Source: a virus (Duplodnaviria > Heunggongvirae > Uroviricota > Caudoviricetes). Taken from it: a stretch of DNA of 23,513 bases. Below, one piece after another: positions 22,171 to 22,190 of this stretch. The number at the start of each line of letters is the position of its first letter. Position 1 is the stretch's first letter. The position numbers and the translations under genes were made by a program. Location of the stretch: the IMG/VR virus record IMGVR_UViG_2737471866_000003. One strand, given 5' to 3'. The notes beneath the pieces were generated by a model. It was not told the DNA's origin. It searched no databases and saw nothing but the letters and a program-made list of their open reading frames with translations.

Positions 22171-22190
22171 CCGCGCCGCTGCCGCCCCGT
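22171..22190 (-). other. cosN-like cohesive-end site
   Basis: Minus strand reads ACGGGGCGGCAGCGGCGCGG followed by AAAAAGG. Lambda cosN and flanks, as I recall them, read ACGGGGCGGCGACCTCGCGG followed by GTTTTCG: the first 10 nt and the CGCGG are identical. The distance to the small terminase start (about 180 bp) matches the lambda cosN-Nu1 spacing. Confidence 0.45.

Follow-up and report, generated by a model that had tools for sequence, protein, structure and literature searches.

The minus strand of a 23,513-nucleotide stretch of Caudoviricetes DNA (IMG/VR record IMGVR_UViG_2737471866_000003; the whole stretch is referred to here as the window) carries at positions 22171-22190 the 20-mer ACGGGGCGGCAGCGGCGCGG, which resembles the cosN site of phage lambda. 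This site is most probably (roughly 85%, by our estimate) the cosN of a lambda-type cos that is complete and looks intact, with the order cosQ-cosN-cosB, in an mEp460/Ayreon-like lambdoid prophage of Escherichia coli, and the virion DNA is predicted to have the cohesive ends GGGCGGCAGCGG. The strand is also the coding strand of the adjoining terminase, head and tail genes. The predicted end departs from that of lambda only at positions that vary freely among such phages, and the site is therefore one more unremarkable instance of a kind that is already well described.

Positions in the cos region are given in phage orientation, where bp n is window coordinate 22188 - n. With the expected nicks marked by slashes, the region reads ...ACGGGTCCT-TCCGGTGGGGTGGTCTGCCACG/GGGCGGCAGCGG/CGCGGAAAAAGGCTAGTTTTTGAAATTTCATCCGTCATCACCACTACTGTAATAGATTGATATTACAGTA..., the coordinates having been verified on the sequence. 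The packaging-termination signal cosQ, GGGTCCT (22210..22216, minus strand), is located 22 nt upstream of the top-strand nick, and the identical heptamer is found in lambda. The spacer between cosQ and cosN (22188..22209, minus strand) ends in ...CCACG, and its last CG is the conserved dinucleotide on the 5′ side of the top-strand nick, which would fall between 22188 and 22187. The predicted 12-nt 5′ cohesive end (22176..22187, minus strand; CCGCTGCCGCCC on the plus strand), assigned by homology to lambda, comes next, and the bottom-strand nick is expected between 22176 and 22175. It is followed by the right flank CGCGG (bp 13-17; 22171..22175, minus strand), whose CG is the dinucleotide on the 3′ side of the bottom-strand nick. 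Exactly 12 nt separate the two conserved CG dinucleotides (...CCACG/12 nt/CGCGG...). The CG flanks of both nicks are known to be highly conserved, as is cosQ (PMC4669245).

The original prediction described a cosN-like site with the outer framework of lambda and a divergent centre, AGCGG in place of GACCT, and the sequence bears this out. The framework ACGGGGCGGNNNNNNCGCGG has a single match in the 23.5 kb of the window when both strands are searched with up to one mismatch, and 0.00 matches are expected from 100 dinucleotide-preserving shuffles. The lambda record (NC_001416) ends with ...ACGGGTCCTTTCCGGTGATCCGACAGGTTACG and starts with GGGCGGCGACCTCGCGGGTTTTCGC, which gives the junction ...GTTACG/GGGCGGCGACCT/CGCGGG and agrees with the lambda core given in the original prediction. 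The two cos regions have in common the cosQ heptamer, the left half GGGCGG (bp 1-6) with the CG ahead of the top-strand nick, CGCGG at bp 13-17 and the 12-nt spacing, although the distance from cosQ to the nick is 22 nt in the window and 23 nt in lambda. Their cohesive ends, GGGCGGCGACCT in lambda and GGGCGGCAGCGG in the window, differ only at bp 8, 9, 11 and 12. Ten of 16 positions in cosN are two-fold symmetric in each, but they are partly different positions. Both have an A/T-tract spacer, after which comes the protein-binding region of lambda or, in the window, its candidate counterpart, with a site of the integration host factor (IHF) type that is putative in the window. The gene of the small terminase subunit (TerS) begins some 190 bp in from the left end in each (bp 187 in the window and bp 191 in lambda).

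A chance GC-rich motif in a phage with headful (pac) packaging, evidence of which would have gone against the original prediction, is effectively refuted. From the shuffles no chance match is expected, and homology to lambda, Gifsy-1, cdtI and LLS extends over cosQ, cosN and the flanks. Moreover, the large terminase subunit (TerL) has both domains of the lambda gpA family and stands next to a full cosQ-cosN framework, and the TerL of LLS, which is of this terminase type, was assigned to the lambda 5′-cos class by the authors of that study (PMC12315714).

TerL (700 aa; 19405..21507, minus strand) belongs to the lambda gpA family, with the ATPase (GpA_ATPase, 1.7e-71) and the endonuclease (GpA_nuclease, 2.1e-84). 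It has 25% identity to lambda gpA over 623 aa (BLASTP, E 1e-18), and 694 of its 700 residues are identical in the TerL of mEp460_4F5. TerS (164 aa; 21507..22001, minus strand, with its ATG at bp 187) is a member of Pfam DUF1441 (2.7e-41), and the proteins annotated as TerS in phages phi458 and Ayreon match it with 100% identity. DUF1441 is its sole match above the gathering cutoff, and the Pfam family of lambda TerS, Phage_Nu1 (PF07471), gives no match even at E<=10. An AlphaFold (AF2) model of TerS, built with 30 homologues (pLDDT, the predicted local distance difference test, 78.6), has an N-terminal strand-helix-helix-wing-helix arrangement followed by long helices. The best matches of this model in the PDB by Foldseek are MerR-family regulators, 6hn7_B and RppC, with E values of 0.02-0.09 and none below 0.001; the 6HN7 entry is a complex of RppC with residues 1-98 of lambda TerS (PMC6739421). 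An hhalign comparison of DUF1441 with an alignment of the Nu1, phage 21 and N15 TerS proteins gave one collinear alignment of 137 columns (E 4.9e-4, probability 32%). TerS looks like a distant Nu1-type winged-helix protein. The terminase is a diverged lambda-type enzyme, not an enzyme of a different kind.

The natural variation of the cohesive end was examined in loci fetched from IMG/VR by two anchors, a 20-mer of the cosQ-cosN spacer and the GGAAAAAGGCTAGTTTTTG spacer, with about 190 sites sampled. Among 42 unique sites obtained with the upstream anchor, cosQ shows no variation and bp -4 to +6 are invariant, including the bp -4 to -1 segment ahead of the top-strand nick. The right flank at bp 13-17 is nearly so, each position of CGCGG being kept in 40-41 of the 42. 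The variation is found at bp 7-12, which carry 0.45-1.08 bits per position, and at least 13 distinct 12-mers of the form GGGCGG+N6 occur in the fetched loci. Among 64 loci, one of them the window, whose TerS proteins agree over the 45 N-terminal residues, the second half of the end is GAGCGT (51 loci), GAGCGG (10), CAGCGG (2) or GAGCAT (1). The C at bp 7 together with the G at bp 12, as in the window, is thus rare with this cosB (2 of 64 loci, one of them the window). The CAGCGG end, GGGCGGCAGCGG, is found with three TerS types, namely DUF1441-mEp460, cdtI and phage-21/Nu1. Within the sampled sites, this pattern shows the variable half of the sticky end to be independent of terminase type.

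These data are in line with what is known of lambda-like phages. Their cosNs commonly differ at bp 7-12, and conservation is seen in the left half, in the CGs beside the nicks and in cosQ (PMC4669245). Mutations in the right half leave cos cleavage unaffected, and the lambda and N15 terminases are without cosN specificity (PMC4669245). The cosNs of N15 and phiD326 are natural right-half variants (bp 9 and 12) and are cut normally by the terminases of lambda and N15; for a survey of cosN variation, Feiss et al. refer to Vahanian et al. 2017 (PMC4669245).

Comparison of the flanking sequences reveals a mosaic joint at cosN. The 300 bp upstream of the nick, together with the IS3 end at 22653, is 99-100% identical to the corresponding segments of two loci (L005, from strain XJ6-3, and L103) that have the 12-mer of the window but a phage-21-like cosB and a Nu1-family TerS. 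The same segment is 99-100% identical to that of a third locus (L108), which carries the 12-mer and the Nu1 of lambda. On the downstream side, bp 18-300 are 100% identical to those of two further loci (L180 and L128), in which the 12-mer is GGGCGGGAGCGT and the upstream DNA is unrelated. Identity switches after bp 18 for L005 and L103, after bp 7 for L108, and before bp 13 for L180 and L128, and none of the fetched loci matches both flanks at more than 90%. From these switch points and the lack of a two-sided match, cosN is a module boundary, and the 12-mer can move together with either side.

The mosaic could have arisen either by homologous exchange in the conserved cosQ-cosN tract of about 50 bp or by heterologous cos-to-cos packaging, which was demonstrated by Feiss with lambda/N15 dilysogens (PMC4669245). 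In the latter process, packaging would be initiated at one cos and terminated at another, and the mismatched cohesive ends would then be resolved. Breakpoints that hug both nick positions are what a natural footprint of such packaging might look like. That terminase-driven cos-to-cos packaging between co-resident lambdoid prophages is a routine source of mosaicism at the lysis/packaging boundary, besides homologous recombination, is a tentative idea, and we hold it to be doubtful.

The original prediction also suggested that the divergent core fits a non-lambda terminase. This part did not stand, as TerL is of the gpA family and the 12-mer is independent of terminase type. In its stronger form, the suggestion is that the centre of cosN is a specificity determinant that has co-evolved with the terminase, and a few observations point that way. 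TerS falls outside Phage_Nu1, TerL is just 25% identical to gpA, and among the sampled loci the 12-mer of lambda occurs only with a lambda- or N15-type cosB. However, a single 45-residue TerS N-terminus is accompanied by four 12-mers, and CAGCGG by three TerS types. Where the sequence beyond bp 13 is identical to that of the window, the loci have another 12-mer, and a locus identical to the window on the upstream side has that of lambda. The lambda and N15 terminases, moreover, are not specific for the right half of cosN (PMC4669245). Co-evolution of this kind is very improbable, and the preferred reading of the site as a lambda-type cosN with a freely varying right half accounts for its divergent centre.

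Among known phages, the closest relatives of the packaging region are those of the mEp460 group (mEp460, Ayreon and phi458), with TerS 99-100% and TerL 99% identical to those of the window. The 12-mer of mEp460, GGGCGGGAGCGG, is 1 nt away from GGGCGGCAGCGG. In cdtI and Tritos the cosQ-spacer-cosN framework is the same as in the window, but cdtI and most other relatives have the 12-mer GGGCGGGAGCGT. In relatives from IMG/VR, cosB from bp 13 onward reaches as much as 100% identity with the window; the DNA upstream of cosQ in the mEp460/cdtI relatives, in comparison, is unrelated. A related cos/DUF1441 region is present in about one-fifth of complete E. coli genomes.

The Salmonella phage Gifsy-1 has the same cosQ, and its 12-mer, GGGCGGCAGCGT, differs from that of the window at bp 12 alone. 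Unlike the window, it has a Nu1-family TerS, and its head genes and cosB are of the lambda/21 type. Feiss counts Gifsy-1 as one of the phages with 12-base 5′ cohesive ends (PMC4669245, PMC4856287). The phages LLS and mEp213 share with the window the TerS family (57-58% identity), a gpA-type TerL, the GGCTAGTTTTT spacer and lambda-like tails. They also share a triplet-like motif at the R3 position, which is CATCATCATCAT in these phages and GTCATCACCAC in the window, as well as the TGTCGA and GTTCAYCA blocks. A 12-nt end, GGGCGGCGCGCT, has been inferred for this pair (PMC12315714). The cosB of N15 is simple and contains one R3, its TerS is Nu1-related, and its end has two differences from that of lambda, compared to four for the window.

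Comparison with the cos sites of phages carrying this terminase type had been proposed as a check, and it reveals a homologous framework in the mEp460 group and LLS, as well as sequence records that end at the homologous nicks in cdtI, LLS and yong2. The cdtI record (AB285204) starts with GGGCGGGAGCGTCGCGGAAAAAGGCTAG and ends with ...GGTGGCCTGCCACG (...CCACG), and is thus opened exactly at the homologous top-strand nick. In the LLS record (PQ299149), bp 1-12 are annotated as '5' extended single-strand cohesive site GGGCGGCGCGCT', next to a TerS with 58% identity to that of the window. The LLS end was deduced from its TerL, which is of the gpA type, and from the cos of mEp213 that Feiss had analysed, and the Nanopore reads of this phage did not include the ends around cos (PMC12315714). 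The record of the Hafnia phage yong2 starts at the conserved CGCGG, which corresponds to bp 13. Cyanophage Cr-LKS3, whose TerS has 40% identity to that of the window by tblastn, has determined 5′ cohesive ends of 9 nt with the same flanking dinucleotides (PMC9303873).

The last example bears on the possibility that the site is a cosN with its nicks or overhang off the lambda register, that is, with a shorter overhang or shifted cuts, given a TerL with only 25% identity to gpA. Besides the 9-nt end of Cr-LKS3 (PMC9303873), 11 nt separate the flanks in the VT1-Sakai prophage, the mEp460_4F5 record is 3 nt shorter here, and the junctions in yong2 and Gifsy-2 are non-canonical. In the window, however, the two CG dinucleotides are exactly 12 nt apart, the cdtI and LLS records are in the 12-nt register, and the fixed segments at bp -4 to 6 and bp 13-17 match cuts at the CG steps. 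A shifted register is improbable, and 12-nt ends in the lambda register remain the preferred reading.

Several of these records have features of their own. The Stx1 prophage VT1-Sakai (AP000400, upstream of H0025) has the same cosQ, an I2-like spacer and the CATCATCATCAT motif, and the 11 nt between its conserved ACG and CGCGG, GGGCGGGCGGG, correspond to an 11-nt overhang or a shifted right nick. Gifsy-2 and yong2 have a DUF1441-family TerS, a GGCTGATTTTT or GGCTAGTTTTT spacer and non-canonical cosN cores, with GGTGGCTTCGGGCT between CACG and CGCGG in Gifsy-2 and a record end of ...CCGAGGGGGCAGCGACA and restart at CGCGGG in yong2. From these cores it follows that the GGGCGG left half is not universal in the DUF1441 terminase family. 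The mEp460_4F5 record (LR595868) opens (CCACGGGGCGGGAGCGCGG...) 5 nt ahead of the predicted nick on the upstream side, and its 3-nt shortening in comparison to its relatives lies across the junction of the 12-mer and the right flank. The shortening looks like an assembly artefact at physical ends, and could also be a real cosN deletion in a lab-evolved phage. Contig ends were considered as a proxy for virion ends and rejected, as most of the fetched IMG/VR contigs, judging by their identifiers, belong to draft isolate genomes, and such assemblies can break at repeats common to several prophages. Two IMG/VR contigs both begin 53 nt upstream of the nick.

Downstream of cosN is an A/T-tract spacer (AAAAAGGCTAGTTTTTGAAATTTCA, bp 18-42; 22146..22170, minus strand) with A5/T5 tracts, which separates cosN from cosB and may function like I2, the element of lambda at this place (PMC4856287). 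GGCTAGTTTTT is a signature of DUF1441-type cos, and the spacer is kept across divergent cos regions of this type. The cosB that follows is unrelated in sequence to that of lambda, having GGCTAGTTTTT and CATCAC-type motifs instead of the lambda R sites. Cos regions of phages with diverged TerS proteins of this family were aligned, namely those of the mEp460 type, of three other subtypes from E. coli, and of LLS, yong2 and cdtI, and the blocks described below are conserved in position across this alignment.

The candidate equivalent of R3, a TerS-binding site, is GTCATCACCAC at bp 46-56 (22132..22142, minus strand), suggested by its position and its subtype-linked motif. R3 is located at bp 50-65 in lambda and at bp 48-60 in N15 (PMC9026076). 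A triplet-like motif is present at bp 46-58 in all the DUF1441-type cos regions and varies by TerS subtype, with CATCATCATCAT in LLS-type regions and GGCGGCGGCA in those of the cdtI type. Such a subtype-linked change is the behaviour expected of a binding site. An IHF core consensus match, TATCAATCTATTA, is found at bp 62-74 (22114..22126, plus strand), within a perfect inverted repeat of 10+10 nt (22106-22131), and may bind this protein. The consensus WATCAANNNNTTR has one match in the whole window, inside cosB, with 0.5 expected over 23.5 kb. Its TTGAT core is kept in most related cosB regions, but the arms of the palindrome are not. Two further blocks lie within 22061..22090 on the minus strand. 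The first, TGTCGA (bp 98-103), is conserved and may have a role in cosB. The second, GTTCATCAC (bp 119-127), shares TCATCAC with the R3-like site and could be an R1-like site. Both blocks, with a spacing of about 20 nt, are kept in the cos regions of the window, the mEp460 type, LLS and yong2.

Two other elements in this region were considered as TerS sites. The palindrome at 22106-22131 was downgraded, its right arm being degenerate or altered in loci with a nearly identical TerS. A 17-nt direct repeat (22124-22140 and 22245-22261, 14 of 17 identical; CATCAYYMCTACTGTAA in phage orientation) has one copy that overlaps the R3-like site and another about 45 bp upstream of cosQ. The latter copy was rejected as a second TerS site, as it is in a segment common to phage-21-type prophages that do not have this TerS, and the repeat is probably due to chance.

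Based on the lambda system, the site is likely to work as follows, with the nick positions, the protein-DNA contacts and the activity of the prophage copy all being predictions. The DUF1441 TerS would bind cosB downstream of cosN, for which bp 46-56 and 119-127 are the candidate sites, and IHF would bend the segment at bp 62-74. TerS would thereby position two copies of the gpA-family TerL on the partly two-fold symmetric cosN. TerL would then nick the top strand at 22188/22187 and the bottom strand at 22176/22175, producing virion DNA with 12-nt 5′ overhangs, GGGCGGCAGCGG, and cosQ, 22 nt upstream, would be used for the cut with which the packaging of each genome terminates. Recognition would involve the conserved GGGCGG of the left half and the CG on the outer side of each nick. 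Bp 8, 9, 11 and 12 lie in the right half, which is not read by lambda-type terminases and which drifts and recombines freely among such phages.

Some observations weigh against the reading of the site as the cosN of an intact lambda-type cos. TerS shows no similarity to lambda Nu1 by BLASTP, and its remote-homology scores to this protein are weak. The proposed cosB sites were assigned from short motifs and their positions. The point at which cdtI is opened is a record boundary. In the literature, no mapped virion ends were found for any phage with this exact terminase, and the authors of the Ayreon study only predicted cos packaging. The exact arrangement of the window is absent from the 5,426 complete E. 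coli genomes in RefSeq, where the best identity is 93.9%, and a 27-mer spanning cosN and the start of cosB has 0 matches in the GTDB species representatives. In addition, an IS3-family insertion sequence (IS) separates the lysis end of the prophage from cos, at a distance of about 465 bp upstream of the nick. With this element present and the arrangement not found in these genome sets, this prophage copy is best regarded as potentially active.

The insertion and the absence from complete genomes also fit a reading in which the cos is a disused relic, the prophage being defective or disrupted by the IS. Strain XJ6-3 has a counterpart of the IS3-cos segment with 99.6% identity, in which the element is annotated as IS3. 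The same junction is found there beside a clearly decayed prophage at potB, with a truncated TerS fused to tail-fibre remnants. In the window, on the other hand, cosQ, cosN and cosB are all intact and IS3 is outside the cos region. TerS and TerL are 100% and 99% identical, respectively, to the proteins of phage isolates, and the portal, the protease-capsid gene and a full set of lambda-like tail genes are present as long open reading frames (ORFs). A relic is unlikely, and we favour a cos that is intact and potentially functional.

The IS3-family element (22653-23513, minus strand; ORF 22683-23498) has rve, rve_2 and HTH_21 domains, with the IS end at 22653. The lambda-like tail module that had been noticed earlier was confirmed, with the Pfam families of gpJ, H, L, M, K, V, U, Z and G. 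There is one clear difference from lambda in the head genes, however. A single ORF of 739 aa (15716-17935, minus strand) encodes a ClpP-type prohead protease fused to a major capsid domain (Phage_capsid_4), while lambda has separate C, Nu3 and E head genes. The fused arrangement has been described for Gifsy-2-type heads (PMC12315714), and the head genes of the window are of this type, next to a DUF1441 TerS in place of the Phage_Nu1 TerS of lambda.

A 90-aa ORF beginning with ATG on the plus strand (22145-22417) spans cosN and cosQ and has no Pfam match. RefSeq has no annotation corresponding to this ORF on the identical stretch in XJ6-3, and it is probably spurious. An Rfam scan of 21800-22700 found nothing beyond noise at E~0.9, and a promoter and terminator scan gave no signal exceeding shuffle expectation.

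One IMG/VR record (IMGVR_UViG_2574179916_000005, 11,983 bp) has three cos-like sites, at about 59-138, 8194-8273 and 10730-10809. Downstream of the first come TerS, a TerL that breaks off after the ATPase domain, and then a block with integrase, Bro-N, AAA_25 and SSB. The second is of the cdtI type, lacks an intact TerS and adjoins a protease-capsid gene, and the third is followed by another DUF1441 TerS. This record could be either a stack of decayed prophages or a satellite-like insertion.

With this site, the prophage and its many relatives can be annotated from the correct opening point and with predicted ends, and there is a sequence to look for in end-mapping or PhageTerm analyses. The site adds one natural cosN allele to the documented pattern and overturns nothing. 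A mismatch of 2/12 already costs about 4-fold in yield (PMC4669245), and because of this the 4/12 mismatches of the predicted end would plausibly impair annealing with lambda ends. Divergence of this size may limit end-joining between the genomes of different lambdoid phages. Over the roughly 190 sampled sites, the variable half of the sticky end does not follow terminase type, and cosN is a module junction. If the tentative idea given above is true, cos-to-cos exchange would shape the mosaicism of lambdoid phages at the lysis/packaging boundary.

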